64,000 nt of DNA, from NCBI GenBank assembly GCA_029862125.1, contig JAOTXY010000011.1:572-64571 (forward strand), written 5' to 3'. A program made the position numbers and the translations under genes. The DNA comes from Gammaproteobacteria bacterium (GTDB lineage: Bacteria; Pseudomonadota; Gammaproteobacteria; GCA-001735895). Positions 2,768 to 63,609 of the stretch are shown piece after piece. Below the pieces are notes generated by a model. That model was given only the letters and a program-made list of their open reading frames with translations. It was not told the DNA's origin and ran no database searches. Within the stretch, counting starts at the first letter, position 1. Every line of letters begins with the position of its first letter.

Positions 2768-2791
2768 CGTTTTCGAAGCGGGAGAGGATCG

Positions 2792-10728: not shown

Positions 10729-13056
10729 GTGGCGCAAGCTAGACACAAACGACGTTCCGATGAACAGGACGCCAGGCTGATGTTCGGCCAGGTTAATCAA
10801 CGCCTGCGCGAAGCCGGCATGCTGCTTTCGTTTGCACTCGCAGGCTACTTCCTGGTCGCGATGTTCAGTTACGACGCGCTGGATCCATCCTGGTCGCATA
10901 GCGGCAGTAATACTGAAATCAGCAACTTCGGTGGCACCGCGGGTGCCTGGATTGCTGACCTGACCTTCTACCTGTTTGGTTTCCTCGCTTTCCTGCTGCC
11001 GATTATGCTGATTTATAACGGCATGATCCTGGTCAGGATGCGGGAAATGAGCCCTGAAGACCGTTACCAGTTGCTGGTCATTCGCTGGAGCGGTTTCGTA
11101 CTGACCTTAATTTCGGGCTGCGCGCTGTCGAGTATTCACTTTTCGATAGAACCCGGCGCCATGCCGCTCGATGCAGGCGGGATTCTCGGGCAGATCGCGG
11201 GCAATTATTTTTCCCAGGGACTTGGTTTCATTGGTGCCACGGTAATGCACCTGGCGTTATTTTTGGCCGGTTTGACCCTGTTCACCGGGCTGTCGTGGCT
11301 GGCATTGATCGACAATGTCGGCAAGTACACGCTGCTGTTGCTGGACAAACTGCTCGACCGGTATTACCTGATGCGGGACAGGGCGGAGGGCAATCGCAAC
11401 CGCAGCGAGCGTGACCAGGTATTCCAGGTGCAGCAGAGGAAACTAGAAAAACGCAAACCGGTGAAAATCGAACCGGTGGTGGAAAATATCGAACCGAGTG
11501 TGCGGGTCGAGAAAGAGAAACAGATACCGCTGTTTAAAACCGTTGGCAAGGGCAATAGCACGATTCCACCGCTGGCGCTGCTGGATAAACCCAGGCCGAA
11601 GGTTGCCGGTTACTCCAAGTCGGCACTTGAAGCAATGTCGCAGCAGCTGGAATTGAAGCTACTCGATTTCGGTATTGAGATCCAGGTCGAATCGGTGCAC
11701 CCGGGTCCGGTCATTACGCGCTTCGAGATTCTGCCCGCACCGGGTGTCAAGGTTAGCCAGATTTCAAATCTCTCCAAGGACCTGGCTCGTGCACTCTCGG
11801 TTATCGCGGTGCGGGTTGTCGAAATCATTCCGGGTAAATCGGTAATGGGGCTCGAGATTCCGAACGAGAATCGGGAGCTGGTTGCGTTAAGCGAGATCAT
11901 CCAGTCAAAAAGTTTCGACCAGGCTGCTTCGCCGTTGACACTCGCCCTCGGCAAAGACATTAGCGGTGAAGCGATCGTTGCCGACCTGGCCAGGATGCCG
12001 CACCTGCTGGTTGCCGGTACCACCGGTTCCGGTAAATCGGTTGCGATTAATGCAATGCTGCTCAGTATCCTGTTCAAGGCGACCCCGGAAGACGTACGCA
12101 TGATCCTGATAGATCCGAAAATGCTCGAACTCAACATCTATGAAGGCATTCCGCATCTGATTGCGCCGGTGGTAACCGACATGAAGGAAGCAGCCAACGC
12201 GCTACGCTGGTGCGTGGCGGAGATGGAACGGCGTTACCGACTGATGGCTTCGCTTGGCGTGCGTAATATCGCCGGCTACAACCGCAAGATCCGCGAGGCA
12301 ATTGCCGCGGGAACACCGATTAAGGATCCGTTATTTGACAAGAAGACGCTGTTACTGGACCCCGATGCCGAGCCTGAAGACCTCGAAACCCTGCCGTATA
12401 TTGTTGTCGTTGTCGATGAATTCGCTGACATGATTATGGTGGTGGGTAAGAAGGTCGAGGAACTGATTGCTCGACTGGCACAGAAAGCTCGCGCCTCGGG
12501 CCTGCACCTGTTGCTGGCAACGCAACGCCCGTCGGTGGATGTGATTACCGGGTTGATCAAGTCGAATATTCCAACCCGCATCGCTTTCCAGGTGTCATCC
12601 AAAATAGATTCGCGCACCATCCTCGATCAAATGGGTGCGGAAACCCTGCTCGGGCACGGCGATATGCTTTACCTGCCGCCAGGCACCAGTGTGCCCGAGC
12701 GTGTCCATGGCGCTTTCGTCGATGATCACGAGGTGCATGCCGTGATCAACGAAATCAAGAAGTCGGGTGAACCAAATTACATAACCGATGTCCTTGAAGA
12801 ATCATCCTCGGCGGTATTGCCGGGAGAGGGACCGCGTGATTCCAATGGTGAAGAGGCGGACCCGCTTTATGACGAGGCAGTCGCCGTGGTTACCGAGACT
12901 CGCAAGGCTTCGATTTCCTACGTGCAGCGGCGCCTGAAGATCGGCTATAACCGGGCCGCGCGCATGATTGAAGAAATGGAAGCATCCGGTGTCGTCTCCA
13001 TGGTGCAATCAAACGGTAGCCGGGAAGTGCTAGCGCCACCACCTCCAGCGGATTGA
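10729..13056 (+). CDS. ftsK: DNA translocase FtsK
   Basis: N-terminal TM domain, Walker [27 protein letters not shown], gamma domain ([16 protein letters not shown]). Confidence 0.98.
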
Positions 13057-46743: not shown

Positions 46744-47232
46744 AGGTGTATTGTCCTCGTAAACGTGACAGCGAACAGGTTCTGGTCGCTTATTTTAACT
46801 GGTATAAGGGGCTTTAGAACATGGTTTGTTTTCTCGATAATTCAAATGTACCGAATTAAAACCGGATTTTATCGGCATATCGTTTAATTCGGCGTAAAAC
46901 TGGTACTTAAAGCAATGACGGTTAAGCGTATTTTCTTTATTATTGGAGCAGGCAACATAGGTTCACAAATTTCAACAACGACTATTTTGGTTCGCAACCA
47001 AACGACGGCACTCATACAGGAGACAGACTATTGAATGTTCCGAATAAGCAGTTTCCCTCCTCATCGGTAACCTTTTCCATGTTGATTTCAGAATCAATTT
47101 ACAAGCATGTCGTGGGTATCGAACCTACTATTCGCTGGTTTGCAAAAGCTGTTTTCAGACCCTGCCTGGCCCAGTTCAGGTGCCTGCTATGGTGAAAACA
47201 GATATCCAAATCGTACAAATCGGCGTCGATTT

Positions 47233-48465
47233 ATGATCCAACGCAGGTTTGTAGCAGCCACGCTATCGTGTCTATTAATGGGAGTCCCCGGCCTGGCACA
47301 GGCTGCCGTTTGCGATATCGATAAAGATGGCGACGTGGATCGCCTGGATATCAGCCTGATCATCAGTGCACGCGATACACCGGCGGATGGATCACGCGAT
47401 CTGCGTGATCCAGACGGTGACGGCAATATCACAGTGTTCGATGCACGGACCTGTATACGGCGGTGTAATTTGCCAGACTGTCAGATAGTCGATCCTGCAC
47501 CCCCTCCCACAACCGATAATTCAGACCAACTTAAAACACCGGTGGTAACTCCAGCTCAGAATACAGGAGATAAAGCCAGTAAACCAAGCGTGGCAGCTAC
47601 AAATCAGTCAGGTACTGGTATCCAGGGAAGGGCGATGGCCAGCGGCACTAAATGGAAAGTAAAACGTGGCGATACCCTGTATGCGATCGGTCGTGCTGTT
47701 TATCCGGGGGATGTCAATAAGCAGGCCCGTTTAAGGCAGGATATCATCAAGTTGAATCCCGCTATTTTCGCCAATGGCGCCAATAAAATGGCCGTTGGTG
47801 TCGTTCTGAAACTGCCCGATTATGTCATTCCAAAAGATGCGCCGGTCGAAGCTACTCCCAAACCACCGCCAAAGCTTGTTGAGCCTGCCCCGGTCGTTAA
47901 GCCTGCCCCGGTCGTTAAGCCTGCCCCGGTCGTTAAGCCTGCCCCGGTGGTTGAACCTGAACCCGAAACACCACAGGAAATCTCGGCATCTTTCGTGCGC
48001 ACAGAAAGTAATTACCTGGTCAGTCTTGGTTACGCTTACGGTGGGGATAAGCTGGTTTATGAAGATGGTTCCTACGATCCTGCAGGGGCTGGTGCCCATG
48101 CGCGTCTGGGTTATGAACAAATGTATCAATTTGGTGGCGGCTATCGCGTAGGGCTCGGTTTTCAATACGGTTTTACGGAAGACTCGACATTGCAGGATGT
48201 CTATTTGCAATTGGCGTATCAATATCGCTCAAATCCATTTATTTTCGGGATTGGTGTTGTTGTTCATGATGGGGCGACGCTCGAAGATGATTCCACTATC
48301 GAATACGATGCCGCAAATGGTGTGGTTGTGTATTTGGAGAATGTCGGGAAAGGTGACCTGGCTGGCTGGGGGCTTAGTTACACCTCCCTGGATATTGAAG
48401 ACAAAGACAGCTCTGAATCATTTGATGCATCGCGAGCCGAACTTTATTACAGTTGGCGTTTTTAA
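47233..48465 (+). CDS. outer-membrane protein: dockerin-like EF-hand pair + LysM + Pro-rich linker + beta-barrel
   Basis: Signal peptide from ATG 47233; DIDKDGDVD and DPDGDGNIT loops; WKVKRGDTLYAIG...LKLP LysM; C-terminal alternating strands ending YYSWRF. Confidence 0.8.
   Translation: MIQRRFVAATLSCLLMGVPGLAQAAVCDIDKDGDVDRLDISLIISARDTPADGSRDLRDPDGDGNITVFDARTCIRRCNLPDCQIVDPAPPPTTDNSDQLKTPVVTPAQNTGDKASKPSVAATNQSGTGIQGRAMASGTKWKVKRGDTLYAIGRAVYPGDVNKQARLRQDIIKLNPAIFANGANKMAVGVVLKLPDYVIPKDAPVEATPKPPPKLVEPAPVVKPAPVVKPAPVVKPAPVVEPEPETPQEISASFVRTESNYLVSLGYAYGGDKLVYEDGSYDPAGAGAHARLGYEQMYQFGGGYRVGLGFQYGFTEDSTLQDVYLQLAYQYRSNPFIFGIGVVVHDGATLEDDSTIEYDAANGVVVYLENVGKGDLAGWGLSYTSLDIEDKDSSESFDASRAELYYSWRF
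47883..47954 (+). repeat. 18-bp coding tandem repeat x4 (PAPVVK)
   Basis: GCCTGCCCCGGTCGTTAA three times exactly, plus one variant copy. Confidence 0.95.
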
Positions 48466-48518
48466 TTTCAATCCCGGGAGCGGAATACCGGCTCACAATA
48501 AGCTAGCCGTGGTATTTT

Positions 48519-48974
48519 TCATTTTTTTGCTATTGCGAGGATATGCCGGCTAAATGCGTCATCCTCACCTTCAAGGAGGTCGGGCAGTAATTCGACGAAC
48601 TCCTTTTTGCGGCACCACTCTGCCATGTCGTCTTCCCAGGACATCCAGCGACGTTTTGCATCGGGTTTCATATTTTCGGAATAGAGAATAATGTAGGCCT
48701 TTTCAAATAGTGACACCAGCATCCTGTAGATAATTTCCCGTCGTTCGAGTTGTTCCTCTGATAGTGTAGGCGGATTATTCGATGCCCTTAAAAGTAAAAG
48801 GTCGGCATTGTCCAGAACCAGCCTCAGGAAATTATCGTATTCCTCTGAAAGGTGTCGGTGGAGTTCGTTTTCTTCATTATCGAGACGTCTTCTATGCTCG
48901 TAAATAAAAACGAGAATAGCGGTTGGGAAACCCAGTATTGTTACCAGGTAACTCAATGCCTCTAACCAGGTCAT
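48519..48974 (-). CDS. conserved hypothetical protein with single N-terminal TM anchor
   Basis: LSYLVTILGFPTAILVFIYE followed by a helical domain (LVSLFEKAY...RWMSWED...W). Confidence 0.75.
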   Translation of the reverse strand: MTWLEALSYLVTILGFPTAILVFIYEHRRRLDNEENELHRHLSEEYDNFLRLVLDNADLLLLRASNNPPTLSEEQLERREIIYRMLVSLFEKAYIILYSENMKPDAKRRWMSWEDDMAEWCRKKEFVELLPDLLEGEDDAFSRHILAIAKK

Positions 48975-48978
48975 GGCA

Positions 48979-49983
48979 TTAAACCTTTACAACCAGCTTT
49001 CCAAAATGCCCTGCAGCGCGCATTGCGTGATAGGCGGAGCGTGCATCTTCAAAATCAAATACCCGGTCAATAACCGGGTGTATCTTGTTTAGAGCGAAGG
49101 CCGCGTTCATGTCTTCGAACATCCGGCGGTTGCCAACATAAACACCTTGCAGGCGGATTGATTTTCGCATCACGGTGGTGGGATTAATCGCGCCGCCTGT
49201 CAGGACTCCGATCAAACTGATGGTACCGCCGATCCGGGTAGCCTCCATTGTTTTCTCCAGGGTCCCGCCACCGCCGGTCTCAATGGTCACATCGACACCA
49301 CTACCATTGGTCATTTCGAGGACTTGTTTTTCCCAGGCAGGGTTCTGGCGATAGTTGATCAATTCATCTGCGCCCAGCACCCTGGCACGGGTCAATTTAT
49401 CATCACTGGATGACGTAACTATTGCCCGCGCGCCCATCATTTTTGCAATCTGCAAACCGATGATTGATACACCACCGGTGCCAAGAAACAATGCCGTGTT
49501 GCCTGCCCTGAGGCCACCCTGTTCAACCAGGCAGTTCCAGGCAGTCAATCCGGCACAAGGAAGTGTCGATGCTTCTTCAAATGACATATGGGCGGGAATG
49601 TGCACCGCACCGGCTTCGTTAAGCACCACCTGTTCGGAGAGGACGCCATCAACCGAACCACCCATTGCGCTGGCCATGGCTTCAGCTGATATGCGCCCGT
49701 CAGACCAGTTCTGGAAGAAACATCCAGCAACCCGGTCTCCGATTTCAAACCGGGAGACTTCTGCACCGACACCAATCACCTCGCCGGCACCGTCAGAATT
49801 CGGGATCAGCGGGTACTCGATACCTCGTGGAACAGGGTCTTCAATTGTCGAGAGATCTCGATAATTTATGGATGAGGCTCGGATGCTAACGAGTATTTCA
49901 CTCGCTCCCGGTTGCGGTGATTGCCTTTTGTTCAGGGCAAGCGCATCGACACCGTCGTCTGATACTATTTCATAAGTGCGCAT
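48979..49983 (-). CDS. MDR-family NAD(P)-dependent oxidoreductase (zinc-independent type)
   Basis: SINYRD, PNSDGAGEV, LPCAGLTAW, GTGGVS, HFGKLV. Confidence 0.92.
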   Translation of the reverse strand: MRTYEIVSDDGVDALALNKRQSPQPGASEILVSIRASSINYRDLSTIEDPVPRGIEYPLIPNSDGAGEVIGVGAEVSRFEIGDRVAGCFFQNWSDGRISAEAMASAMGGSVDGVLSEQVVLNEAGAVHIPAHMSFEEASTLPCAGLTAWNCLVEQGGLRAGNTALFLGTGGVSIIGLQIAKMMGARAIVTSSSDDKLTRARVLGADELINYRQNPAWEKQVLEMTNGSGVDVTIETGGGGTLEKTMEATRIGGTISLIGVLTGGAINPTTVMRKSIRLQGVYVGNRRMFEDMNAAFALNKIHPVIDRVFDFEDARSAYHAMRAAGHFGKLVVKV

Positions 49984-50233
49984 GTGAAATCTTCAAAAAA
50001 CTCTGCCTGAATCTGCCTGGACACACTCTCCATGTTGGAGAAATTTTTGTCAATTACTGATTCACAATATATTAGCGAGGATCAACTAACGACGTCCTCT
50101 GCCAGCGACAACCCCGCAACCGGTTTGTGCAAGCGGTACAGGAATGTTTAAGCAATAAGGAAGTCGGTAGTGCTTTTTTCCGGGGAGTGCAGAATGGAAT
50201 AAAATTTAGTACCCCGGGATTAGATCAGTTTAA

Positions 50234-50467
50234 CTAGTTAAAGCTGAACAGTTTTTTAAACGAGGACTTTAAAGAGGAAACCTCACTGCGATCAGTACCA
50301 AAGTATTGCCGAACAAGTTCATCTCGTATTTTCTGCTGTCTGCGTTCGGCCCGATCTTTACCGACGACACTGCTGACTACTTGCGTAAAATCAGTAATCA
50401 GGCTATTGTCAGTAGCATCGGTGTTATCGCTTCTTCTTGTTCCCGGTAAAGTTATTTCTTCGTTCAT
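50234..50467 (-). CDS. hypothetical protein (77 aa)
   Basis: Co-oriented ORF in an otherwise empty gap; no recognisable motif; weak RBS. Confidence 0.45.
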   Translation of the reverse strand: MNEEITLPGTRRSDNTDATDNSLITDFTQVVSSVVGKDRAERRQQKIRDELVRQYFGTDRSEVSSLKSSFKKLFSFN

Positions 50468-50844
50468 CTATTTTGAATCTGCCTAAATTGTAGCGGCCAG
50501 CCATGGCCTCATTTTCAATCCGGTGCATCCGCATTAATACCAGCAAAGCATAACAAGGCATTAATATGGCGACATCCCCTGTATGGGTTAAATGTTTAAT
50601 TGCTGAAATGTTGCAGCGGGATGGTTTTTTGCTGTGGTTTTCTTTAAAAAAGACAGCAACGGGATACTTGACTTACACGCCCCTGATTAGAAATTAATGC
50701 TAGCCGACGGGTATCTTGTGCGACCGAAACGGCAAAATAACAGCATACTTTCATAATGCTTTAGGAGGCTTTGCTGTCAGTGGCGATGTTTTTCTTGTTA
50801 TCCGCTTATGTGCTGCGGGAGGATAAGGAGTTACGACAATATTA

Positions 50845-51768
50845 TTACTGTCTCGCAATATCGGTTTGGAACAGGTAGGTTTCTTCTAAATCTTCATCGA
50901 TATCGAGGTCAACCATTCCGAGAGACTCCATTACTTCAAACCACTGTTCGTCGGCCAGGCGGCAGGCGATGGCTATTTGCTCCGATGTGCACTTCGATTT
51001 TTCCCAGTTCGGAATTGTCGACAGGATATCCGCTACCACATCTTCTTCCTCTTCTTCTTCATCGATATTATTCAGGTCAAGCCGGCTCAATTTATTCGCC
51101 AAATATACAATGCTGGTTTCAACTGCTATTTGCCCATTGTGATCGGTATCGTGGTGTCTTTTCACGCATTGGGTAATCAGACCTGGAATGCCCCATTTAT
51201 CCAGTAACGCAACCCCGACATCGATGTGTGAAACCCCCAGCTTTTCGGTTTCGACCTGGATGACATCCTTGTTTTCGGTTCTCGCAAGTTCGGAGATCTG
51301 GATATAAGAGCCCGGATTCACTTTTGCGATTACCAGCCATCCGATATCATGCAACAGCCCGGCCGTGAAGAAAGCCTCGTGATCGATGACACATGCATTT
51401 TGCATCGCCAGTTGCCTGCCGATAATCGCGGTTTTTATACTATGTTGCCAGAAGTCCCTTAGCGGAAACTCGGTGATATCAAAATCTTTAAAAACGCCGG
51501 CTAATACGGAACCCACCAGGACCTGTCGTAACTGCTGGCGACCCAGTAAGGTTACGGCCTGGGGGATGGAGGTAACCGGATTTTGCAATCCGTAGTAGGC
51601 GCTGTTGATCAGTTTCAGGATTCTGGCGGTTAATGCGGGATCGGACTGAACCGCTTCTCCGATTTTTATGCCGGTTGAGCTTTCAGTCTCAAGCAGTTCA
51701 GTTACCCTGATATAGACTTCGGGAAGTGAAGGTAACTCACCTGCCTGCTTTAGTAGAGGTTCCAGCAT
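50845..51768 (-). CDS. HDOD domain protein
   Basis: LPSLPEV, DPALTARILKLINSAYYG, FWQHS, AGLLHDIG, W-G-I-P. Confidence 0.92.
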   Translation of the reverse strand: MLEPLLKQAGELPSLPEVYIRVTELLETESSTGIKIGEAVQSDPALTARILKLINSAYYGLQNPVTSIPQAVTLLGRQQLRQVLVGSVLAGVFKDFDITEFPLRDFWQHSIKTAIIGRQLAMQNACVIDHEAFFTAGLLHDIGWLVIAKVNPGSYIQISELARTENKDVIQVETEKLGVSHIDVGVALLDKWGIPGLITQCVKRHHDTDHNGQIAVETSIVYLANKLSRLDLNNIDEEEEEEDVVADILSTIPNWEKSKCTSEQIAIACRLADEQWFEVMESLGMVDLDIDEDLEETYLFQTDIARQ

Positions 51769-51867
51769 TTTTATCCTTAATATTTTATTTGAACCAATAT
51801 CGAATACTGTTGCAGTCTAATTCGACACCGTCCAGGGCATTGCCATGGTGTTGTAAAAACGACTCCT

Positions 51868-53115
51868 TTAAATCGATCCAAGCATACTTTCGACTGCCGC
51901 GACTTCTGCCTTGGACTCTTCGATAAAGCTTTCACTTTCTTCTGCACTGAATTCCAGCTGTAGTTTCAGGAAAGCAGGCATTTTTGAAAGCGCTGGCAAA
52001 GTCTTTTCTGAAGCTGTTCCGAGGAGACTGTAATATCGAGCTACCAGAACCAGGTCGCACAGGTCAGCTTCGTCGCGATGGTTGCGAAACCATTTACGGG
52101 ATTCTTCACCGACAGTAACGATTTCATCACCCAGGCTCCATTGGTAGAGCAACATTCCGTTGATCTGGGAGTGCAGTGAGCGAATGGTTTGATCGAGCGC
52201 CTCATCGTCGCCATAAAGGTCGCTGTGTGACTGCGCGTAATCCAGTATCGCGATTATCCCCAGGTCGCTTATCAATCCTGCCATCTGGGCCATTTCAGGA
52301 TCGAAGCTTCCCGACCTGCTGGCAAGCACCCGGCTGTAAGCCGAAAGTTTGCGACAATTCTTCCACAACGACTGCATGCGATTTTGCATACTATTTGATT
52401 TGGACTCGAACAATTCAGAAGCCGCGTAAATCATGATCTGCTTTTTAATTACATCCATCCCCATACGTACGATCGCTTGTTGCAGGGTCTCGATAGGCTC
52501 GCTGCCACGATATAATGCGCTGTTGGCCGTTTTCAGCAACTTGGCAGTTATCGAGGGATCAGACTGGATAAGCCCGGTAACCTTGGCGACATCATAGTTG
52601 TCGTCGGCAAATACCTTTTGGATTTTTTGTACGACATCCGGCAATGTCGGCAGCGAAATATTGCCGCTGCTGATATCGGTACAGAGACTGATGGTCAGTT
52701 GATTAGCTGCCTCCGATTGCTCAATTATTTCGACTTCCATTTCGGTAGATTCCGGCTCCTCAACCAAGGACAACTCGGTTAACAGGTCGTTGGGGATCTC
52801 CAGGTACTTCGTAGGTGAGACTGTCTCGATTTCATAAAGGCTCGGGCGGATATGTGCGATCGGCTCCAGGTCATCATCGCTTTCTGAACCCATCTTGCGT
52901 TCGTTTCCCTCACCGTCGCGGCTGATGGCTTCGCCGCTCAACAGGTACAGGCTGTAATCACCCAGGTCACCCAGGCCGATTATGCGCTGCTTCGGCGCAG
53001 CCATTTTTGGTTCAAGCCTGGCGGCCAGGCTGTTGAGCTGCTTGTCGTTGAATAGCGCCAGGTTTCTGATACGTTTCAAAACCGAGTGGTCGAGTGCCGT
53101 GGTATCGTTCTGCAT
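51868..53115 (-). CDS. HDOD domain protein with N-terminal cNMP-binding-like domain
   Basis: N-terminal LALF..L..L..L...YSLYLLSG pattern; HDOD LPTLPDV, DPSITAKLLKTANSALY, AGLISDLG. Confidence 0.85.
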   Translation of the reverse strand: MQNDTTALDHSVLKRIRNLALFNDKQLNSLAARLEPKMAAPKQRIIGLGDLGDYSLYLLSGEAISRDGEGNERKMGSESDDDLEPIAHIRPSLYEIETVSPTKYLEIPNDLLTELSLVEEPESTEMEVEIIEQSEAANQLTISLCTDISSGNISLPTLPDVVQKIQKVFADDNYDVAKVTGLIQSDPSITAKLLKTANSALYRGSEPIETLQQAIVRMGMDVIKKQIMIYAASELFESKSNSMQNRMQSLWKNCRKLSAYSRVLASRSGSFDPEMAQMAGLISDLGIIAILDYAQSHSDLYGDDEALDQTIRSLHSQINGMLLYQWSLGDEIVTVGEESRKWFRNHRDEADLCDLVLVARYYSLLGTASEKTLPALSKMPAFLKLQLEFSAEESESFIEESKAEVAAVESMLGSI

Positions 53116-53314
53116 CTGTATATTCCCCGTGAAAATTCAGATTTTTTATGGACATATTAATGTATGGCAGCCCTATCGGCCGTTGGTGGAAAAACTTGAG
53201 TAGCAGTTAAAGCTAGTTGTTTTTGTGGCAAATATACGGCTTCTACAATCCATACCAGGGGAGAAAACCAATTCTGACTGGAGTTTGTCCCTGTTGCCGG
53301 TTATTTTGTATTCC

Positions 53315-54130
53315 GTGAACAATAGAAACAAAAAATTTATCGCCTGTGGCATGTATGCATTTAGCGACGACCTGGCAGGGGCGTGGCAACAGCTGTTTGC
53401 CTGCTTTAGCGAACTGCTTGATGCCAGTAGTAAGCAAGCGATCGAATTGCGCTTTGATTCAGACCAGGCCCTGCTGCGAGATGCGGGATTATTCCTCGGT
53501 CATACCTGTGGCTATCCGTTGATGAAGCATTTAAAAGACCAGGTCATTCCGTTTTGCGTACCCGTGTTTGAGGTGCCTGGAACCGATGGAAAAATGTATT
53601 CGAGTCGTTTCATTGTTGCCGCGGATTCGTCCATCGAAGCACTTGATGAGTGCCGGGGAAAAGTCGCTGCGATGAATGCCGCGGACTCAAATAGCGGGAT
53701 GAACGTACTCAGGTACGCGATTGCAAGGTTCAACCCGTCCGGTCCATTCTTTTCCAGGGTAGTTCAAACCGGCAGTCATCTGCATAGCCTGGAGACGGTG
53801 GCTGACGGGACCACGGATGTCGCTGCCATCGATTGTGTCAGTTACCAGCTGATCCAGGATCATTGGCCGGAACTGGTTGAAAAGGTGCGTAGCATTGGTT
53901 TCAGCGTAAAGACATGTGGCCTGCCTTTGGTGCTTCCGAGACCAGGTATTGACGATGCCGACTTGGAGCTGCTGGTGGAAAAAATGAATCAGGCACTTGC
54001 AGATACCCCTGAAACGATTCGTAACAGGCTTCACCTGCACGGATTCGAGCCAGTGACACTGGAAGACTACCAACCGATAATCGAGCTGGAGAACTTTGCT
54101 ATAGATTCAGGTTACCCCCGTCTCATTTAG
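53315..54130 (+). CDS. PhnD/phosphonate-binding-like protein without apparent signal peptide
   Basis: GHTCGYP, YSSRFIV, AMNAADSNSG, TGSHLHSL..VADG..DVAAIDCVSY, PLV; start placed at GTG 53315 (uncertain). Confidence 0.8.
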   Translation: MNNRNKKFIACGMYAFSDDLAGAWQQLFACFSELLDASSKQAIELRFDSDQALLRDAGLFLGHTCGYPLMKHLKDQVIPFCVPVFEVPGTDGKMYSSRFIVAADSSIEALDECRGKVAAMNAADSNSGMNVLRYAIARFNPSGPFFSRVVQTGSHLHSLETVADGTTDVAAIDCVSYQLIQDHWPELVEKVRSIGFSVKTCGLPLVLPRPGIDDADLELLVEKMNQALADTPETIRNRLHLHGFEPVTLEDYQPIIELENFAIDSGYPRLI

Positions 54131-54309
54131 TAGCCCCTTACCGGCAGTCGTTAATTAACGCGGCCGGTTAATTCCCTGTAGATACCTGGTTAACGATTCG
54201 ATGCTGTTTACTGCCATCGGCGAAGTTGCATGTAAATAACCTGATTTTCCCGGCTAGACGGCTCCAGATTTCTCAAATACTATCGACTGCTGTATCACAG
54301 GAGCCCTCA

Positions 54310-55830
54310 ATGAGCCGCAGAAGAGCCCGTAAACGAAGTGCCACGCCGGATCAGGTGGTCAAACCAAAGGCCGAGCAACTCTTTAATCCCTATCAGCCGA
54401 TCGAAGCGCTCGATCAAACGGCGCTCGATCTGATCCATGATGGATCCATGCGTATCCTCGAAGAAATCGGGCTCGAGGTCTTAAATGAATCCGCGCTCGC
54501 GCTCTACGAACAGGATGGCGCCCGAGTTGACTGGGATTTGCAGCGCGTATACATCGATCGCGAGCGACTGATGCAACGACTTGCCACGGTGCCTTCGGAG
54601 TTTACCCTGCACGCGCGCAATCCCGGGCGATCCCGCCTGGTCGGCAGAAACGCGGTGAATTTCACCACCGTCGCCAGCGCGCCCAACAGTTCCGATCTCG
54701 AAGGAGGGCGCCGCACCGGCAACTTCGAGGATTACTGTAATTTTCTGCGCCTCGGGCACAGTTATGACGTGATCGACTTTTTTAGCGGTTACCCGGTCGA
54801 ACCGATCGATATCCATCCCGAAACCCGCCACCTCGACGCGACACTGGCGGCGCTGACCCTGGCAGATCGTTCATTTTCGCTGTACTGCCTCGGGGGCGGG
54901 CGTGTCAACGATGGCATCGAGATGACCGCAATTGCGCGTGGAGTCGACCGCGAAACGATGAAATCCGAGCCCAGCATTATCACCGTCGTCAATACCAATT
55001 CTCCATTACGGGTTGATGGTCCCATGCTCGATGGCTTGATAGAAATGGCCGAGAATGGGCAGCCAACGATCGTGACACCATTTACGTTGTCCGGCGCCAT
55101 GTGTCCGATTACGATCGCGGGTGCGCTGGCGCAACAAAATGCCGAAGCGCTTGGCGTAATCGCGTTGTCACAAATCGTTAAACCCGGTGCGCCAATGGTC
55201 TATGGTGGCTTTACCTCAAATGCCGACATGCGCAGCGGTGCACCGGCATTCGGTACCCCGGAATACACCCGCGCCGCTTGGGCGAGCGGTCAGCTGGCAC
55301 GACGCTACAACCTGCCATTTCGTTCGTCCAATACCAATGCCTCGAATTGTGTCGATGCCCAGGCAGCCTGGGAGTCTCAAATGTCGCTCTGGGGCGCGGT
55401 CATGGGGCAGGCCCAGATTATCAAGCATGCCGCGGGATGGCTCGAAGGCGGGCTGTGTGCGTCGTTCGAGAAATTTATTATCGATATCGATATGCTGCAA
55501 ATGATGGCCGAGACCCTGAAACCGCTGCAGGTTGACGAGTCGAGTCTGGCGTTGGAAGCCATTACCGAGGCCGGGCATGGGGGGCATTTTTTCGGAACTT
55601 CCCATACCATCGCGAATTACACCACCGCTTTTTACGAGCCGATTGTGTCGGACTGGAGCAACTTCGAGACCTGGGTTGAAAACGGTGAGCAAACCGCCTT
55701 TCAGCGCGCCAACAAGGTGTATCGCCAGGCCCTGAAAGATTACCAGGAACCCGAAATAGACGCTGCGATTCGTGAGTCGCTGGAACAGTATGCAAGTGAG
55801 CGACGACGCGAACTGGAGCTCGCGCGATGA
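54310..55830 (+). CDS. trimethylamine methyltransferase (MttB) family, non-pyrrolysine
   Basis: GYPVEPIDI, NTNSPL..DGPM, TPFTLSGAMCP, PAFGTPE, DAQAAWES, HAAGWLEGGL; ATG 54310 with CAGGAG RBS. Confidence 0.93.
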   Translation: MSRRRARKRSATPDQVVKPKAEQLFNPYQPIEALDQTALDLIHDGSMRILEEIGLEVLNESALALYEQDGARVDWDLQRVYIDRERLMQRLATVPSEFTLHARNPGRSRLVGRNAVNFTTVASAPNSSDLEGGRRTGNFEDYCNFLRLGHSYDVIDFFSGYPVEPIDIHPETRHLDATLAALTLADRSFSLYCLGGGRVNDGIEMTAIARGVDRETMKSEPSIITVVNTNSPLRVDGPMLDGLIEMAENGQPTIVTPFTLSGAMCPITIAGALAQQNAEALGVIALSQIVKPGAPMVYGGFTSNADMRSGAPAFGTPEYTRAAWASGQLARRYNLPFRSSNTNASNCVDAQAAWESQMSLWGAVMGQAQIIKHAAGWLEGGLCASFEKFIIDIDMLQMMAETLKPLQVDESSLALEAITEAGHGGHFFGTSHTIANYTTAFYEPIVSDWSNFETWVENGEQTAFQRANKVYRQALKDYQEPEIDAAIRESLEQYASERRRELELAR

Positions 55831-55914
55831 CCCGGGGTATTGCGGCTAAATTTCGTGATGTAATTAGTAGCGGCTGCGCGACTTCGCTCGCGCTTCAACA
55901 TTAGGGTTATTGTC

Positions 55915-58332
55915 ATGCGCTCACATGCACAGGTTGTTGTCATTGGCGGCGGTGTCGTCGGTTGCAGCGTTATCTACCATTTAACCAGGTTCGGCTGGAA
56001 AGATGTCGTCCTGATCGAACGTTCCGAGCTGACCTCGGGCTCTACCTGGCATGCGGCGGGTGGATTTCACACCTTGAATGCCGATACCAACATGGCTGCC
56101 TTGCAGGGATACACGATTCGCCTCTATCGTGAACTCGAGGAGATTACCGGTCAATCCTGCAGTTTGCACCATGTCGGCGGCCTTACCTTGGCTGAATCCC
56201 CGGAACGTCTCGACTTTCTCAAATCCGCTCGCGCAATGCATCGGCACATGGGTCTCGATACCGAGCTGGTAACACCTGAAGAGATTCGCAAGCTTAGCCC
56301 TATTACCAATACCGATGGTGTACTCGGAGCGCTTTATGATCCTTTGGATGGGCACCTCGACCCTTCGGGAACCACCCATGCCTACGCCAGGGCGGCGCAG
56401 ATGCAGGGGGCCGAAATCATCCTGCGCAACCCCGTGCTCGAGACTAACCCGCGTGCCGACGGTAACTGGGAAGTGGTCACCGAGCAGGGCACGATCGTGG
56501 CCGAGCAGTTGGTCAATGCAGCCGGTCTGTGGGCGCGCGAAGTCGCTGCAATGGCCGGCGTTTACCTGCCGCTGCATCCAATGGAGCACCAGTATTTTGC
56601 GACCGACGATATTGCCGAAGTGTTTGAACGCGATGCCGAATTACCGCACGTGATGGACCCTGAAGGGGAGAGCTACCTGCGCCAGGAAGGGAAGGGGCTG
56701 GTGATCGGTTTTTACGAGCAGAATTGCGTTCCGTGGGCAGTAGACGGTACGCGCTGGGATTTCGGTCACGAGTTATTGAGCGAAAACCTGGATCGTATCG
56801 GCGATTCGATGGAATTTGCTTTCAAACGCTACCCGGTGTTAGCCGAGGCCGGCATCAAGACCATCATCAACGGTCCGTTTACTTTTGCGCCGGATGGTAA
56901 TCCGCTGGTGGGCCCGGTACCGGGTTTACGCAACTACTGGTCCGCCTGCGCGGTCATGGCGGGTTTCAGCCAGGGCGGCGGGGTCGGCTTGACGCTCGCC
57001 GAATGGATGATCGAGGGCGAGCCTTCGCGCGATGTGTTTGCGATGGATGTGGCGCGGTTTGGTGATTACTGCAATCCTTCGTATACCCGCTTAAAGGTTA
57101 CCGAGAATTATCAACGCCGCTTTACCGTGTCGTATCCGAACGAAGAACTACCTGCTGCAAGACCGCTCGACACCACGCCGGCCTACGGTATCTGGCAACA
57201 GCAAAACGCGGTGTTTGGATCGGCTTACGGCATGGAGCACGTCAACTATTTTGCCCCGGCAGGGGAGGATCCTTACGAAGTACCCAGCTTACGGCGTTCT
57301 AACGCCTTTGACACCGTGGCAGAGGAATGTCGAGCGGTGCGCGAAGGGGTTGGTATTAACGAAGTCCATAATTTCGGCAAGTACGAAGTTAGCGGTCCGG
57401 GTGCGCACCAATACCTCGATATCATAATGGCCGGTAAGATCCCGGCCCCCGGTCGTATCAGCCTGAACCCGATGCTGAGCCCGGGCGGTAAGATAATCGG
57501 TGATTTCACAGTAGGCCGTCTGCGTGACGACGTGTTCCAGGTAACCGCATCATTTGGCGCACAGGCTTACCATATGCGCTGGTTTGAGCAGCATCTGCCG
57601 CAAAACGGTGTTAATTTGAAAAATATTTCCAAGGAGCGTATCGGCTTCCAGATTGCAGGTCCAAAGGCACAGGAGTTACTGAGTCGTGTAACCCGTGCCG
57701 ACGTATCGACGGCTGCGTTGCCATTTCTTTCTATACGAGAAATCGATGTCGGCCAGTGCCAGGCGATCGTACAACGCGTTAGTTACACCGGGGATCGTGG
57801 CTACGAACTCTATGTGCCATCACACCAGCAGGTAGCGTTGTATGAAATATTGATGGAGGCGGGCGCCGATCTCGGTCTGCGCCCTTTTGGTATGCGAGCG
57901 ATGATGAGCCTGCGACTGGACAAGTCATTCGGTTCATGGATGCGAGAATTCAAGCCTGACTATACTCCGCTGGAAACAGGTCTCGATCGTTTCGTCGATT
58001 ACGACAAGGACACTGAATTTATCGGTAAGGCCGCCGTGAGCGCCGAGCGTGAAAAGGGAGCAACGCGTAAATTGTGTACTTTCGTGGTCGACGCAAAAGA
58101 TGCCGATACGGTCGCCTGGGAGCCAATCTGGCATGACGGCGAGGTGGTTGGCTATGTGACGTCGGGCGGTTACTCGCATCATGCGCAAAAAAGCATCGCG
58201 TTCGGATTTTTACCAGTGGCACTGGTTGAAGAGGGTCGAGAGGTCGAAATTGAAATTCTCGGCGAAATGATTCCGGCCAGGCTTTATTCAGCTCCTTTGT
58301 TCGACCCAAAAAACGAATACCTGCGCGGGTAG
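55915..58332 (+). CDS. dimethylglycine dehydrogenase-like FAD oxidoreductase with GcvT domain
   Basis: IGGGVVG, SGSTWHAAG, NGPFTFAPDG, SYTGDRGYE, SLRLDK, VTSGGYSH. Confidence 0.92.
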   Translation: MRSHAQVVVIGGGVVGCSVIYHLTRFGWKDVVLIERSELTSGSTWHAAGGFHTLNADTNMAALQGYTIRLYRELEEITGQSCSLHHVGGLTLAESPERLDFLKSARAMHRHMGLDTELVTPEEIRKLSPITNTDGVLGALYDPLDGHLDPSGTTHAYARAAQMQGAEIILRNPVLETNPRADGNWEVVTEQGTIVAEQLVNAAGLWAREVAAMAGVYLPLHPMEHQYFATDDIAEVFERDAELPHVMDPEGESYLRQEGKGLVIGFYEQNCVPWAVDGTRWDFGHELLSENLDRIGDSMEFAFKRYPVLAEAGIKTIINGPFTFAPDGNPLVGPVPGLRNYWSACAVMAGFSQGGGVGLTLAEWMIEGEPSRDVFAMDVARFGDYCNPSYTRLKVTENYQRRFTVSYPNEELPAARPLDTTPAYGIWQQQNAVFGSAYGMEHVNYFAPAGEDPYEVPSLRRSNAFDTVAEECRAVREGVGINEVHNFGKYEVSGPGAHQYLDIIMAGKIPAPGRISLNPMLSPGGKIIGDFTVGRLRDDVFQVTASFGAQAYHMRWFEQHLPQNGVNLKNISKERIGFQIAGPKAQELLSRVTRADVSTAALPFLSIREIDVGQCQAIVQRVSYTGDRGYELYVPSHQQVALYEILMEAGADLGLRPFGMRAMMSLRLDKSFGSWMREFKPDYTPLETGLDRFVDYDKDTEFIGKAAVSAEREKGATRKLCTFVVDAKDADTVAWEPIWHDGEVVGYVTSGGYSHHAQKSIAFGFLPVALVEEGREVEIEILGEMIPARLYSAPLFDPKNEYLRG

Positions 58333-58384
58333 GTCATTTAATAACCGAGAGCGGGCGGTTTATAGTATTTGTGATATATTTGCA

Positions 58385-58412
58385 ACTTTACATAATATAC
58401 ATTATGCGCAGT
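58385..58412 (-). other. dif: chromosomal dif site (XerC/XerD recombination site)
   Basis: Minus strand ACTGCGCATAA-TGTATA-TTATGTAAAGT versus E. coli GGTGCGCATAA-TGTATA-TTATGTTAAAT; intergenic; KOPS polarity flips around it. Confidence 0.9.
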
Positions 58413-58551
58413 CATAAAGTTATATACAGATGGGCACTGAATGGGTGATCTGGGCACCTGCAGCTTAATGTTTCGATTTACAAGGTTAAATCATGGTTTA
58501 TGATTCTCAACTTAAGATATAGACTACCCATTCGCCAAGCCGAGATAACAA

Positions 58552-59859
58552 ATGGCAGCTACCAACAAGAAATATTCAAAACCCGTTTACTTGATCGATG
58601 GTAATCGCACACCGTTCCTGAAAGCACGCGGAAGACCGGGACCATTCAAGCACGCGGACCTCGGTATTTATGCCGCCAGGTCACTACTACTTCGAATGCC
58701 GTTTGCCGCGACCGAGTTCGACGAGGTGATATTCGGTTCCACCATGCCGGGCCCTGACGAAGCCAACATTGCACGTATCGTAGCGCTTCGACTCGGATGT
58801 GGTGACCAGGTCCCGGCTTACACGGTGCACCGAAATTGTGCATCGGGTATGCAGGCGCTCGATAATGCTGCAATGTCGATCGCCTCGGGACGCTCTAACC
58901 TGGTTCTGGCCGGTGGCATCGAGGCGATGAGCCAGGCGCCGCTGTTGTTTCACCCGAAAATGGTGAACTGGCTGGCCGACTGGTGGGGAGCAAAATCGAT
59001 CGGTCAGAAATTCAAGGTTCTGGGCGGGTTCAGTCCACGCCTGTTAGCGCCGGTTATTGCGCTGTTGAAAGGTTTAACCGATCCGGTCGTCGGCCTTAAC
59101 ATGGGTCAGACTGCCGAACAGATCGCCTATCGCTTCGGTATTACGCGCGACCAGATGGATCAATTTGCGCTGGAAAGTCATTTGAAACTGCACCAGGCCC
59201 AGCAGGATAATGAATTACCCGAAGTAGTACCTGTTTTCGACTCCCGTGGCAAAGTTTACGATCTTGACGATGGTGTAAGACCTGATTCAACCCTGGAAAA
59301 GCTCGGTAAATTGCGCCCTGCTTTCGATAAACCCTATGGACTTGTGACCCCGGGTAACAGCGCACAGATTACCGATGGCGCCGCGGCACTGGTGATGGCC
59401 AGTGAAGCCGCGGTTAAAAAGTACGATTTACCGATTCTCGCCAGGCTGGTCAGTACCGAGTGGGCCGCGCTTAGTCCCGCAGAAATGGGCCTGGGACCGG
59501 CGCACGCGATTGCCCCGTTATTGAAATCACAGCGCCTCAAGGTTGGCGATATCGATTACTGGGAAATTAACGAGGCTTTTGCGGCCCAGGTGCTTGCAGT
59601 GCTGGCCGCCCTGAATGACAAGGATTACTGCAAACAACAGCTGGGTCTGCGTTCTGCGGTCGGTGAAATTCCGCTGGAGCGCCTCAATATTCACGGTGGC
59701 GGCGTTAGTCTCGGACATCCGGTTGGCGCCAGCGGTGCCCGTATCGTGCTACACCTGGCAAAAGTGCTGCAACAGAAAAATGCGAGCACCGGCGTTGCGT
59801 CCTTATGCATCGGTGGCGGTCAGGGCGGCGCGATGCTGATCGAAAGGAGTACGTCATGA
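58552..59859 (+). CDS. acetyl-CoA acyltransferase (thiolase, FadI-like)
   Basis: RTPFLKA, NCASG, NEAFAAQV, GHPVGASG, LCIGGGQG. Confidence 0.93.
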   Translation: MAATNKKYSKPVYLIDGNRTPFLKARGRPGPFKHADLGIYAARSLLLRMPFAATEFDEVIFGSTMPGPDEANIARIVALRLGCGDQVPAYTVHRNCASGMQALDNAAMSIASGRSNLVLAGGIEAMSQAPLLFHPKMVNWLADWWGAKSIGQKFKVLGGFSPRLLAPVIALLKGLTDPVVGLNMGQTAEQIAYRFGITRDQMDQFALESHLKLHQAQQDNELPEVVPVFDSRGKVYDLDDGVRPDSTLEKLGKLRPAFDKPYGLVTPGNSAQITDGAAALVMASEAAVKKYDLPILARLVSTEWAALSPAEMGLGPAHAIAPLLKSQRLKVGDIDYWEINEAFAAQVLAVLAALNDKDYCKQQLGLRSAVGEIPLERLNIHGGGVSLGHPVGASGARIVLHLAKVLQQKNASTGVASLCIGGGQGGAMLIERSTS

Positions 59860-61886
59860 GTGAAACCATAGTCGATTGGCAAAGCCACAGCGATGACGAT
59901 GGAATCCTTTGGTTGACCCTCGATAAACAAGATACCGATACCAATGTACTTTCGATATCGGTACTGGAACAACTGGATAGCCTGCTCGACGAAATCAACA
60001 ATAACCCGCCCACGGCAATAATCTTTCGCTCGGGTAAAGCAAAGGGTTTTATCGCGGGTGCGGATATCAACGAGTTTCTCGAGGTTACTTCCACGCAGGA
60101 AGCCCTGATCATGATAAAGCGCGGGCAGACCCTGTTTAGTCGAATCGAGTCACTGCCCTGCCCGACCGTCGCCCTGATCGAGGGTTTTTGCATGGGCGGG
60201 GGCACAGAACTTGCGCTCGCCTGCGATTACCGCGTTGCACTCGATGACGCGGGAACACGCATCGGTCTACCCGAGGTAAAACTCGGCATTCATCCGGCTT
60301 ATGGCGGTCTTGTGCGTGCCACTTCGATGATTAATCCTCTGCAATCGTTAGAAATTATGCTTTCGGGGCGGGCATTGACTGCGTCGGCGGCGCGTGCCAT
60401 TGGGCTGGTCGATAAGGCACAGCCAAAACGCCAGATTGAACGCGCGGCGCGCAACGTCGCGTTGGCCCCACCAGATCGGCAGAGCATGCCGTTCATTGGC
60501 AAAGTCCTGTCTTTACCCGGTATTCGCAACTTGCTGGCCGGATACATGAAAAAGCAGGTGGCGAAAAAAGCACCTCGACAACACTACCCGGCGCCATATG
60601 CGATTCTCGATGTCTGGGCCAGTTTTTACGGCAACGACAAGCGCATGATGGAAGAAGAAGCCAATTCGGTTGCACGTCTGATCCAGGGCAGCAAAGTGCG
60701 CAGTTTAATCCGTGTGTTCTTCCTGCAAACGCGGCTAAAGGGACTAGGTGACAAAAAGGCATTCAACCCGAGTCATGTGCATATCATTGGCGCTGGCACC
60801 ATGGGCGGGGATATCGCGGCCTGGTGTGCATTGCGTGGTTTCAATGTGACCTTGCAGGACCGGGAAGCCAAGTATTTAAGCAATGCCTTCAAGCGCGCCC
60901 ACCAGCTGTTCGGCAAGCGTCTGAAAACAACCCGGGAGCGCAATGCCGCGCTGGATCGTTTGATTCCAGACATCGATGGTGACGGCGTCACCAGGGCCGA
61001 TGTCGTAATCGAGGCTATTTTTGAGGATATCGATGCCAAGCACGCAATATACAAGGACATCGAACCGCGCATGAAGCCCGGTGCAGTGCTCGCAACCAAC
61101 ACCTCGAGCATTCCGCTGGAAACACTGGCGACTGTGCTGAAAGAACCTGATCGCCTGGTCGGCATTCATTTTTTCAACCCGGTTGCAATGATGCCGCTGG
61201 TGGAGATCGTCCGGACCGCCTCGTCCTCGGAGGAAACCGTGCAACAGGCGATTGCATTTACGCAGCACATCGGCAAATTACCCTTGCCGGTCAAGAGTTC
61301 TCCCGGATTCCTGGTTAACCGCATCCTGATGCCTTACCTGGTTGAAGCGTTTACGCTTTACGACGAAGGTGTCGCGCCGGAGGCGATCGACAAGGCGGCA
61401 ACCGATTTTGGCATGCCGATGGGACCGGTTGAGCTTGCCGATACCGTGGGTCTCGATATCTGTCAGTCGGTAGCGCAGAATTTATCCGCGGCTTATGGCA
61501 TTGGGTTGCCCGAGGCCCTGAACAGGTTCGTCAATTCAAAGCAGCTCGGCAAGAAATCCGGGCGTGGGTTTTATAACTACGACAAGGGTAAGCCGGTTAA
61601 AGATAAAGATGCCGATCTCGGAGATCAGAAAATGATCCAGAACCGGCTTGTATTCCGTTTGCTCAACGAGGCTGCGGCCTGTCTTAAGGAAGGTATCGTG
61701 ACAGACAAAGACCTGTTGGATGCCGGCATAATATTCGGTACCGGATTTGCACCTTTTCGTGGCGGACCGATGCATCATAGCCTGCAGGAAGGAGTCGAAT
61801 CACTGGTCGCCGCGATGTCTGATTACGAGACGAAATTCGGTGAACGTTTTCATCCAGCCGAGGGCTGGTCGCTAGTGACTGAATAA
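59856..61886 (+). CDS. fadJ: fatty acid oxidation complex alpha subunit (enoyl-CoA hydratase/3-hydroxyacyl-CoA dehydrogenase)
   Basis: FIAGADI, GGGTELALAC, GLPEVKLG, GAGTMGG, TNTSSI, HFFNP, PGFLVNR; ATG at 59856 overlaps the thiolase stop. Confidence 0.88.
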   Translation: MSETIVDWQSHSDDDGILWLTLDKQDTDTNVLSISVLEQLDSLLDEINNNPPTAIIFRSGKAKGFIAGADINEFLEVTSTQEALIMIKRGQTLFSRIESLPCPTVALIEGFCMGGGTELALACDYRVALDDAGTRIGLPEVKLGIHPAYGGLVRATSMINPLQSLEIMLSGRALTASAARAIGLVDKAQPKRQIERAARNVALAPPDRQSMPFIGKVLSLPGIRNLLAGYMKKQVAKKAPRQHYPAPYAILDVWASFYGNDKRMMEEEANSVARLIQGSKVRSLIRVFFLQTRLKGLGDKKAFNPSHVHIIGAGTMGGDIAAWCALRGFNVTLQDREAKYLSNAFKRAHQLFGKRLKTTRERNAALDRLIPDIDGDGVTRADVVIEAIFEDIDAKHAIYKDIEPRMKPGAVLATNTSSIPLETLATVLKEPDRLVGIHFFNPVAMMPLVEIVRTASSSEETVQQAIAFTQHIGKLPLPVKSSPGFLVNRILMPYLVEAFTLYDEGVAPEAIDKAATDFGMPMGPVELADTVGLDICQSVAQNLSAAYGIGLPEALNRFVNSKQLGKKSGRGFYNYDKGKPVKDKDADLGDQKMIQNRLVFRLLNEAAACLKEGIVTDKDLLDAGIIFGTGFAPFRGGPMHHSLQEGVESLVAAMSDYETKFGERFHPAEGWSLVTE

Positions 61887-61899
61887 GCTAGCGAGCGGA

Positions 61900-63609
61900 T
61901 CAGGAACGTTGCGGATACAAATTCGGCAACGAGTCCTCCCGGGTACCGGTTTCAACTGTCAATTGCCGATGCTCGGCAGCAACCAGTCGCCACAATGCTC
62001 GCCCCTGCCAGGTTTCACTGTGATCCGCATATAATGCTTTGTCGAGACGACGAAGTTCCCCGGCAAGCTCACTGGATCTTGTTCTGATCCTGATCTCATA
62101 TAGACCATTGATGTTATCGCACGGCCAACGCGCCCTGCCCCATGTTATTAGTTCCCGGCAGGCCAGTACGGGATTATTAGATAGGCAGGCCTGTTTTAAC
62201 AATTGACGGTGGCGGCGACTCTTCAGCATGGTTGCAATTGATTCACTCATGCGAACGCGCACTGACCTGAGGCACATCAACAGGCCAGGGATCAGCAATA
62301 TTGCACCGATCCCCGCGTACCACGACCAGTTACCGTGAGCCAGGGTGATGGCCGACCCTGGTGATCCTGTGCCAGACCAGCTTGTCGCTTTACCTGCCGT
62401 CTCTAAGCCGTCTTCGCCAGTTTCCGGCGCGGACGCAGTCCAGCTTTTTCCGGCGAGAGCAGCCATTCTTTCGACCTCTTGTTCGACGTCCCACCATTTC
62501 AGGTTAATCGCAGGTATTTGGATTTCACCTGGCTCTGTAACAACAATCACGAAGCGTTGCTCCAGGCGCCCTGTTAACTCTCGGCCCTCAAACTGGTTTG
62601 AGCGTGTTTCCTGATCGGCGTAAACCCTGAACTTACCAGAATTTGTCGATAACAGGCCCGCGGGCAGAGCTTCTGCAGGTAGCCCTTTAGCCTCGATGCC
62701 GAGGGTCAGTCCGAGCGAATCACCAACCTGCAATTCATTGGTAATCTCATCCCAGTGTTGCTCAAGTTCGATCTCTTGGGCAGGCAGCCAGGTACTACCG
62801 CTGAATTCAGATGGTGGTTTGCGGACCTGCAGCAGCAGGGTTTTGCTGGACCGATTGATGCGTCTCGATTTCGCAGTGGATCCTGCGACTGAGCTGGCCG
62901 ATGCGGATTGTATGAGCCCACGATAATTAACCGGTGGAATCCTGATCTGACCGGGTGATCGAGCAACGATTGAAAGGTTTCGCTCCAGCACCTGGAATTC
63001 CTGGCCTTCGCGAAAAATTGAGTACCTGGACTCCAGGCCGTGACTAAAGGTATCTGTATTATCGACTGCTGGTTCAATCAAATCGCCGTCAAACAGGGGA
63101 ACGTTGTGAATGACACGTATCACGATTTGTGTTTGCTGGCCGACGTAAGGCCTTTCAGGTTCAGCCTCTAGTTCGACCCGTACGTTATTGGCTGAATTCA
63201 GCTCGGCCGATTGTGGGATGACTTCAAGCATTAAAACCGGCGTGAAAACTTCACCAACCTGCAGAGGTGGAATTCTGAGCTTACCGGGGCTACGCGGAAG
63301 TATCTCGATTTGCCACCGCATTCGATGGAATGCCTTGTTTGACTCGAACTTACGCGAAACACTGGACTTGATATCCAGAATCTCGAAGTCTGCTTCAAGT
63401 ACCGATGTATCCAGTGCATAAAGAGATGGAATCCGGTTGTCAAACTCAATTATTAACTCGGCAATATCACCCGAAAATATTTGTTTCGATTGCAGGTAGG
63501 CCGTTTGCGCATAGCTGAGGGATTGCAGCTGGATAAGCAGGATGACACAAAAAAGAAATGGAATTCGAAACACCAAATTATCTCGCCTGTCGTTTCTGTC
63601 GTTGTGCAT
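61900..63609 (-). CDS. batD: BatD family protein
   Basis: Signal-like N-terminus, YVGQQ, WLPAQEIELEQ.W, VGDSL, VYADQ, I.LKWWD, C-terminal LPNLYP; start uncertain (63609, 63576 or 63573). Confidence 0.85.
   Translation of the reverse strand: MHNDRNDRRDNLVFRIPFLFCVILLIQLQSLSYAQTAYLQSKQIFSGDIAELIIEFDNRIPSLYALDTSVLEADFEILDIKSSVSRKFESNKAFHRMRWQIEILPRSPGKLRIPPLQVGEVFTPVLMLEVIPQSAELNSANNVRVELEAEPERPYVGQQTQIVIRVIHNVPLFDGDLIEPAVDNTDTFSHGLESRYSIFREGQEFQVLERNLSIVARSPGQIRIPPVNYRGLIQSASASSVAGSTAKSRRINRSSKTLLLQVRKPPSEFSGSTWLPAQEIELEQHWDEITNELQVGDSLGLTLGIEAKGLPAEALPAGLLSTNSGKFRVYADQETRSNQFEGRELTGRLEQRFVIVVTEPGEIQIPAINLKWWDVEQEVERMAALAGKSWTASAPETGEDGLETAGKATSWSGTGSPGSAITLAHGNWSWYAGIGAILLIPGLLMCLRSVRVRMSESIATMLKSRRHRQLLKQACLSNNPVLACRELITWGRARWPCDNINGLYEIRIRTRSSELAGELRRLDKALYADHSETWQGRALWRLVAAEHRQLTVETGTREDSLPNLYPQRS

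Follow-up and report, generated by a model that had tools for sequence, protein, structure and literature searches.

Does the 28-bp sequence at positions 58385–58412 of the 64,000-nt stretch of DNA analysed here (hereafter, the window) represent the chromosomal dif site of the organism, and does the DNA around it belong to the terminus region of the chromosome? The first-pass annotation had answered both questions positively: it described a dif site on which KOPS motifs converge and concluded that the window holds the replication terminus. For the analysis of the DNA to the right of the site we also used a 32.7-kb metagenome contig (ERZ28013244 k141_2528362), which shares 99.84% identity with the window across 5,547 bp. 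Its first base is 42 bp to the right of the site and it reaches the window-equivalent position 73,573, which gives a 9.6-kb extension and brings the DNA examined to 73.6 kb.

Architecture and conservation of the 28-bp site

The plus strand of the window reads ACTTTACATAATATACATTATGCGCAGT at positions 58385–58412. On the minus strand, the 28-bp site (ACTGCGCATAATGTATATTATGTAAAGT) is composed of ACTGCGCATAA, TGTATA and TTATGTAAAGT, i.e., two 11-bp imperfectly inverted arms around a 6-bp centre, and the TGTATA spacer and the inner CATAA/TTATG arms described in the first-pass annotation are all present on this strand. The putative XerC-binding arm ACTGCGCATAA (58402–58412, minus strand) aligns with the E. 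coli dif arm GGTGCGCATAA and faces the thiolase gene, while the putative XerD-binding arm TTATGTAAAGT (58385–58395, minus strand) faces the left, ftsK-side replichore. The central 6-bp region (58396–58401, minus strand) is identical to that of E. coli dif. A search of the 64 kb with a degenerate gammaproteobacterial dif pattern, allowing up to three mismatches, returned this site as the sole match, and the pattern was found in none of 100 shuffled sequences. The 28-mer is unique within the 64-kb window and within the 73.6 kb examined, and it occurs as a single copy in each relative's own locus as well. Matches to a second site, full or degenerate, were at chance level only, both in the window with its extension and in the relatives' loci, with 44 weak inner-arm matches observed vs. 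41 in shuffled sequences. One weak dif-like 28-mer, at 55839–55866, agrees at 16 of 28 positions, is inverted with respect to dif and lies between the MttB-like and the dimethylglycine-dehydrogenase-like gene, in the very gap where one related locus (L004) has a 2.1-kb insertion. We judged this to be a coincidence; the match itself is at the chance level of the shuffle control.

The site agrees with dif of E. coli K-12 (GGTGCGCATAATGTATATTATGTTAAAT) at 24 of 28 positions and has the same 11 + 6 + 11 layout, with the TGTATA centre and the inner arm bases identical; the E. coli site is also intergenic and is also found at the convergence of GGGNAGGG motifs. The differences are confined to positions 1–2 (GG to AC), 24 (T to A) and 27 (A to G), and A25 is kept. 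According to Carnoy & Roten (2009, PMC2731167), the XerD arm is the best-conserved part of dif and A25 is highly conserved, positions 23–24 are more variable, and intra-species differences occur at positions 1–4 and 27–28. The departures from E. coli dif thus fall only at positions that the literature reports as variable, which argues for the identification of the site as dif. The dif of Shewanella oneidensis MR-1 (ACTGCGCACAATGTATATTATGTTAAAT) carries a nearly identical XerC arm (ACTGCGCAcAA) and the same spacer as the window site. As for the XerD arm, TTATGTAAAGT differs from the usual gammaproteobacterial form, TTATGTTAAAT, at positions 24 and 27. In the accessible part of the tabulation by Carnoy & Roten (2009), gammaproteobacterial XerD arms have the form TTATGTTAAAT, Xanthomonas excepted, and the TTATGTAAA form is listed for the deltaproteobacteria Myxococcus and Syntrophus.

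The locus comes from a lineage known from metagenomes. Sequencing runs that hold it derive from marine and other sediments, and the closest relatives by the flanking thiolase (78–97% identity) are only metagenome-assembled genomes (MAGs) of uncultured Gammaproteobacteria. BLAST of positions 57000–60000 against E. coli genomes gave no match, hence the organism is not an enteric. An exact-protein look-up for the 805-aa left neighbour of dif returned no record. The site itself is located within a 219-bp gap between a gene for a dimethylglycine-dehydrogenase-like FAD/GcvT fusion protein (55915–58332) and an operon encoding a thiolase and a FadJ-like protein (58552–61886, plus strand), and scanning of this intergenic region for promoters and terminators detected weak consensus matches only.

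We found dif in 11 of the 12 closest relatives' loci; in the twelfth (L008) the site is cut off, since the contig only begins 131 bp upstream of the thiolase gene. The thiolase-fadJ operon is its constant right-hand neighbour throughout the clade, and the distance from dif to the thiolase gene is about 140–330 bp, with the exception of L012, where the site lies 2.5 kb upstream. For the alignment we used the window and ten related MAG loci. The eleventh site-bearing locus (L009), whose contig begins only 16 bp away from the 28-mer, was for that reason not aligned, although its 28-mer is identical to that of the window. The alignment revealed 25 invariant and 3 nearly invariant columns, nearly all in one block coinciding with the 28-mer, and the intergenic DNA on both of its flanks was unalignable. 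This sharp phylogenetic footprint, together with the fit to the motif, supports the identification of the site as dif. The XerD arm TTATGTAAAGT does not vary among the 11 site-bearing relatives. The outer three positions of the XerC arm vary (ACT, AGT or TAT), which is the pattern reported for dif by Carnoy & Roten (2009), and the centre is altered in two relatives, to TGGTTA in L007 and TGAATA in L010.

Canonical dif sites of the form A[GT]T[AG]CGCATAATGTATATTATGTTAAAT, i.e., with the usual TTATGTTAAAT ending, were also seen in distant gammaproteobacterial MAGs, including Thiohalophilus (L023:3, L050:2033 and L064:5151). In these lineages, whose thiolase is ~62% identical, the site lies 5–7 kb from the orthologous thiolase-fadJ operon, and the placement of this operon near the terminus may thus be old. 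The one complete relative (CP070646.1; 3,722,441 bp) has the orthologous dif at about position 2,016,509, or 54% of the record by its own numbering, which is only suggestive of a place opposite the origin.

KOPS polarity and the junction of the replichores

All ten coordinates and strands given for GGGNAGGG in the first-pass annotation proved exact. To the left of dif there are seven forward copies on the plus strand, directed rightward to the site (23701, 28192, 34087, 37964, 39917, 47625 and 56689; span 23701–56696), and a single reversed copy on the minus strand (38466). To the right are two reversed copies on the minus strand, directed leftward to the site (60156 and 62133; span 60156–62140), and the extension beyond the window adds three more (65209, 70468 and 71643, minus strand). 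No forward copy was found right of dif in the window or its extension. The site is thereby bracketed by the last forward (56689) and the first reversed (60156) motif. The motif is not enriched in the window, its total of 10 comparing with 6.7 ± 2.2 expected.

For the window alone the orientation contrast is suggestive only (Fisher about 0.07). With the 9.6-kb extension included, the counts are 7 forward and 1 reversed on the left vs. 0 forward and 5 reversed on the right, that is, 12 motifs directed toward dif and 1 away (Fisher p = 0.0047). In 14 related loci we counted 11 forward and 0 reversed copies on the left and 2 forward and 34 reversed copies on the right. As a control, we used the 41 other permutations of GGGNAGGG, which are likewise G-rich. 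These motifs also point mostly toward dif (70–75% of the time, and 70.5% in the pooled set of the window and ten relatives), which reflects the general G-richness of leading strands. Measured against these controls, the window by itself gives no significant KOPS polarity (p = 0.12), whereas in the pooled set 48 copies are directed toward dif and 1 away (p = 8e-7), and among all 42 permutations GGGNAGGG is both the most abundant and the most polar. The proposed convergence of KOPS on the site, suggestive in the window, is therefore firm once the extension (12:1) and the relatives (48:1) are taken into account. This flip of KOPS polarity at dif, seen in the window with its extension and in the relatives, indicates that a replichore junction is located there.

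Gene orientation and composition at third codon positions point in the same direction. Left of dif the genes are mostly on the plus strand, and from 61.9 kb rightward the contig used for the extension carries twelve consecutive minus-strand genes, including batD-like, VWA/TPR, DUF58, moxR, tatD, pilZ, holB, tmk, mltG and fabF genes; the switch in gene orientation is thus about 3.5 kb right of dif. GC3 skew, calculated on the coding strand, was −0.022 for the left plus-strand genes (n = 31), −0.140 for the left minus-strand genes (n = 14) and −0.028 for the right minus-strand genes (n = 12). The latter are therefore leading-strand-like, as predicted for a terminus at dif. The two right plus-strand genes, thiolase and fadJ (n = 2), have a GC3 skew near zero (+0.001); the lagging-strand class would be at about −0.14, so these genes are not lagging-like. 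The switch in gene orientation, taken together with the GC3 skew of the right minus-strand genes, again indicates a junction of replichores.

Bulk GC skew is +0.039 left of dif and +0.004 across the 15 kb to its right, weak and with no clean inversion, and still positive in the first 3.5 kb right of the site. In bins of 1.5–2 kb it is too noisy, and the right side too short, to place the switch. For the pooled G-rich motifs the cumulative maximum is reached 0.6–2.4 kb right of dif in the window; the same measure is noisy in the relatives. From the GC3 skew and this peak we place the compositional switch at dif or a few kb to its right.

A small offset of this kind is what would be expected if the site were a genuine dif displaced from the point where the replication forks meet, so that the window would hold the terminus of segregation, as marked by KOPS, and not that of replication. 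GC skew and the generic polarity of G-rich motifs switch 0.6–3.5 kb right of dif, and in published genomes dif lies between 146 bp and 44.6 kb from the maximum of cumulative skew. In P. aeruginosa, according to PMC6199493, it is segregation and not replication that ends at dif. Yet the shift seen here does not exceed a few kb, no more than gene-level noise would give, and is measured over 15 kb of right side. We consider such a displacement rather unlikely. In view of the P. aeruginosa precedent, what we claim is a replichore junction and not a fork-meeting point. The statement of the first-pass annotation that the window holds the replication terminus stands in this narrower form: KOPS polarity, gene orientation and GC3 skew support that the window contains the junction of two replichores, i.e., the terminus region, and a strict meeting point of the forks is not part of the claim.

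Variable DNA on the flanks of dif

The DNA to the left of dif differs between relatives. L005 and L010 lack a variable left flank of 11.6 kb (46800–58384), and in both of them homologues of window positions 44.0–46.7 kb are found 1–2 kb from dif. The 11.6-kb segment encodes two HDOD proteins, a quinone oxidoreductase, a PhnD-like binding protein, an MttB-family methyltransferase and the dimethylglycine-dehydrogenase-like fusion protein, and its GC content falls to 0.45 at 50–52 kb. The left flank is missing or replaced in several relatives (L005, L010, L011, L012 and L013), with L012 and L013 having other left flanks than the window; all relatives retain the right flank. L012 has, in addition, 2.4 kb inserted between dif and the thiolase gene, which encode the copper chaperones SCO1 and PCuAC and a DUF2946 protein. 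Several independent assemblies break at or beside the site: the contig of L001 begins 42 bp right of it (58454), and those of L009 and L023 begin 16 bp and 2 bp left of it, respectively. In Logan contigs of run X2 a different left sequence is joined exactly at 58384, while contigs of runs X1 and X4 span the 58384/58385 junction as in the window. Word depth is flat in the Logan contigs, and a span of 12 kb is too short for a gradient from origin to terminus to show. The assembly ends and the alternative flank in X2 probably reflect strain or species heterogeneity beside a conserved 28-mer, and the variability of the flanks agrees with what ordinary plasticity of the terminus region would produce.

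At 1826–4878 a citE/malyl-CoA-lyase-like gene is followed by one whose best family match is NF010647 (malate-CoA ligase beta subunit; 703 bits, above the cut-off) and by a third, for a succinate-CoA ligase subunit of the alpha type. These three genes, along with the MttB-family gene and the dimethylglycine-dehydrogenase-like one near dif, suggest methylated-amine or C1/C2 metabolism.

Two less ordinary readings were weighed. One is that the DNA beside dif of this clade is a preferred landing pad for cargo, inserted through an Xer-linked process with no second dif-like scar left behind. The cargo would then include, in the window, the betaine/dimethylglycine catabolic segment to the left of dif and, in L012, the copper-chaperone genes to its right, with junctions at the very edge of the 28-mer. 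We find this very improbable; if true, an uncultured lineage from sediment would have an IMEX-like mechanism for taking up metabolic cargo that is not of phage type. The other is that the site is the end of an integrated Xer-exploiting element (an IMEX, as are CTX-phi, TLC and GGI) or the attachment site of a phage, instead of or besides a plain dif. The changing gene content next to dif (the loss of 46.8–58.4 kb in L005 and L010, the insertion in L012), the contigs whose ends fall on the site or only tens of bases away from it and the X2 flank that joins exactly at 58384 would all fit such an element. However, second dif-like sites do not exceed the chance level given above in the window, its extension or the relatives' loci. 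The variable segments hold metabolic and signalling genes, and no integrase, phage or replication genes, and the L012 insertion consists of copper-chaperone genes. Moreover, a scan of viral contigs found the 26-mer core of the site in none of them, and tRNA and Rfam scans of the window gave no matches, hence no tRNA gene. An origin of the site in an integrated element is accordingly, in our view, a very remote prospect.

A multimer-resolution site of the cer, psi or pdif type, from a plasmid or a secondary replicon, would share the architecture of XerC and XerD arms but is excluded for practical purposes by the chromosomal context: the window and its extension carry core-chromosome genes (a malic enzyme fragment, citE/malyl-CoA-lyase-like, malate/succinate-CoA ligase, aat, trxB, ftsK-lolA-rarA, dsbC-like, sdhAB, iscS, cysG, mrcB, yoaA, cysK and purB, with holB-tmk-mltG-fabF in the extension), the orthologous dif lies in the 3.7-Mb chromosome record CP070646.1, the 6-bp spacer is identical to that of chromosomal dif, and KOPS converge on the site. 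We are highly confident that 58385–58412 is the genuine, conserved chromosomal dif of an uncultured marine-sediment gammaproteobacterium, placed at a replichore junction.

FtsK and the predicted resolution of chromosome dimers

The window encodes a 775-aa FtsK (10729–13056, plus strand; 799 bits to NF007615) with 4TM, alpha, motor and gamma domains. Its gamma domain (residues 708–769) matches PF09397 at 93 bits and aligns over 66 residues with the KOPS-bound P. aeruginosa FtsK-gamma (2VE8/2VE9; E = 1.5e-25), and the 11-residue recognition helix is identical in both proteins. Given the match of the gamma domain and the identical helix, it is a reasonable inference from sequence similarity that the FtsK of the window reads GGGNAGGG. 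The distance from the end of ftsK to dif is 45.3 kb, in agreement with the first-pass estimate of about 45 kb. The gene resides in its usual trxB-ftsK-lolA-rarA cluster. In E. coli and P. aeruginosa, unlike in the window, ftsK lies hundreds of kb from dif; we know of no functional meaning of this closeness. Family models of XerC and XerD had no match among the scanned ORFs of the window, which comprised most of the long ones.

Taking the site, its conservation, the convergent KOPS and the FtsK with a KOPS-type gamma domain together, the locus can be read by analogy with the E. coli, Vibrio and Pseudomonas systems. Sister chromosomes recombined into a dimer would be pumped, after replication, by FtsK anchored at the septum. 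The gamma domain would read the polar GGGNAGGG motifs on each arm, and FtsK would move toward their point of convergence. There XerC and XerD would bind the two 11-bp arms and, upon activation by FtsK, exchange strands across the 6-bp centre, resolving the dimer.

The site is a canonical feature, one more dif of the XerCD/dif family, from an uncultured lineage, and its identification as dif in the first-pass annotation is correct yet routine; our knowledge of Xer, dif and FtsK biology is unchanged by it. What it adds is the record of a clade-specific XerD-arm variant, TTATGTAAAGT, which is a minor one. For those who assemble MAGs, the locus shows that assemblies tend to break at dif, beside variable gene content. 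The dif site anchors the replichore junction within a 64-kb piece of DNA, which aids the scaffolding and orientation of MAGs, coverage-based estimates of growth rate and annotation.
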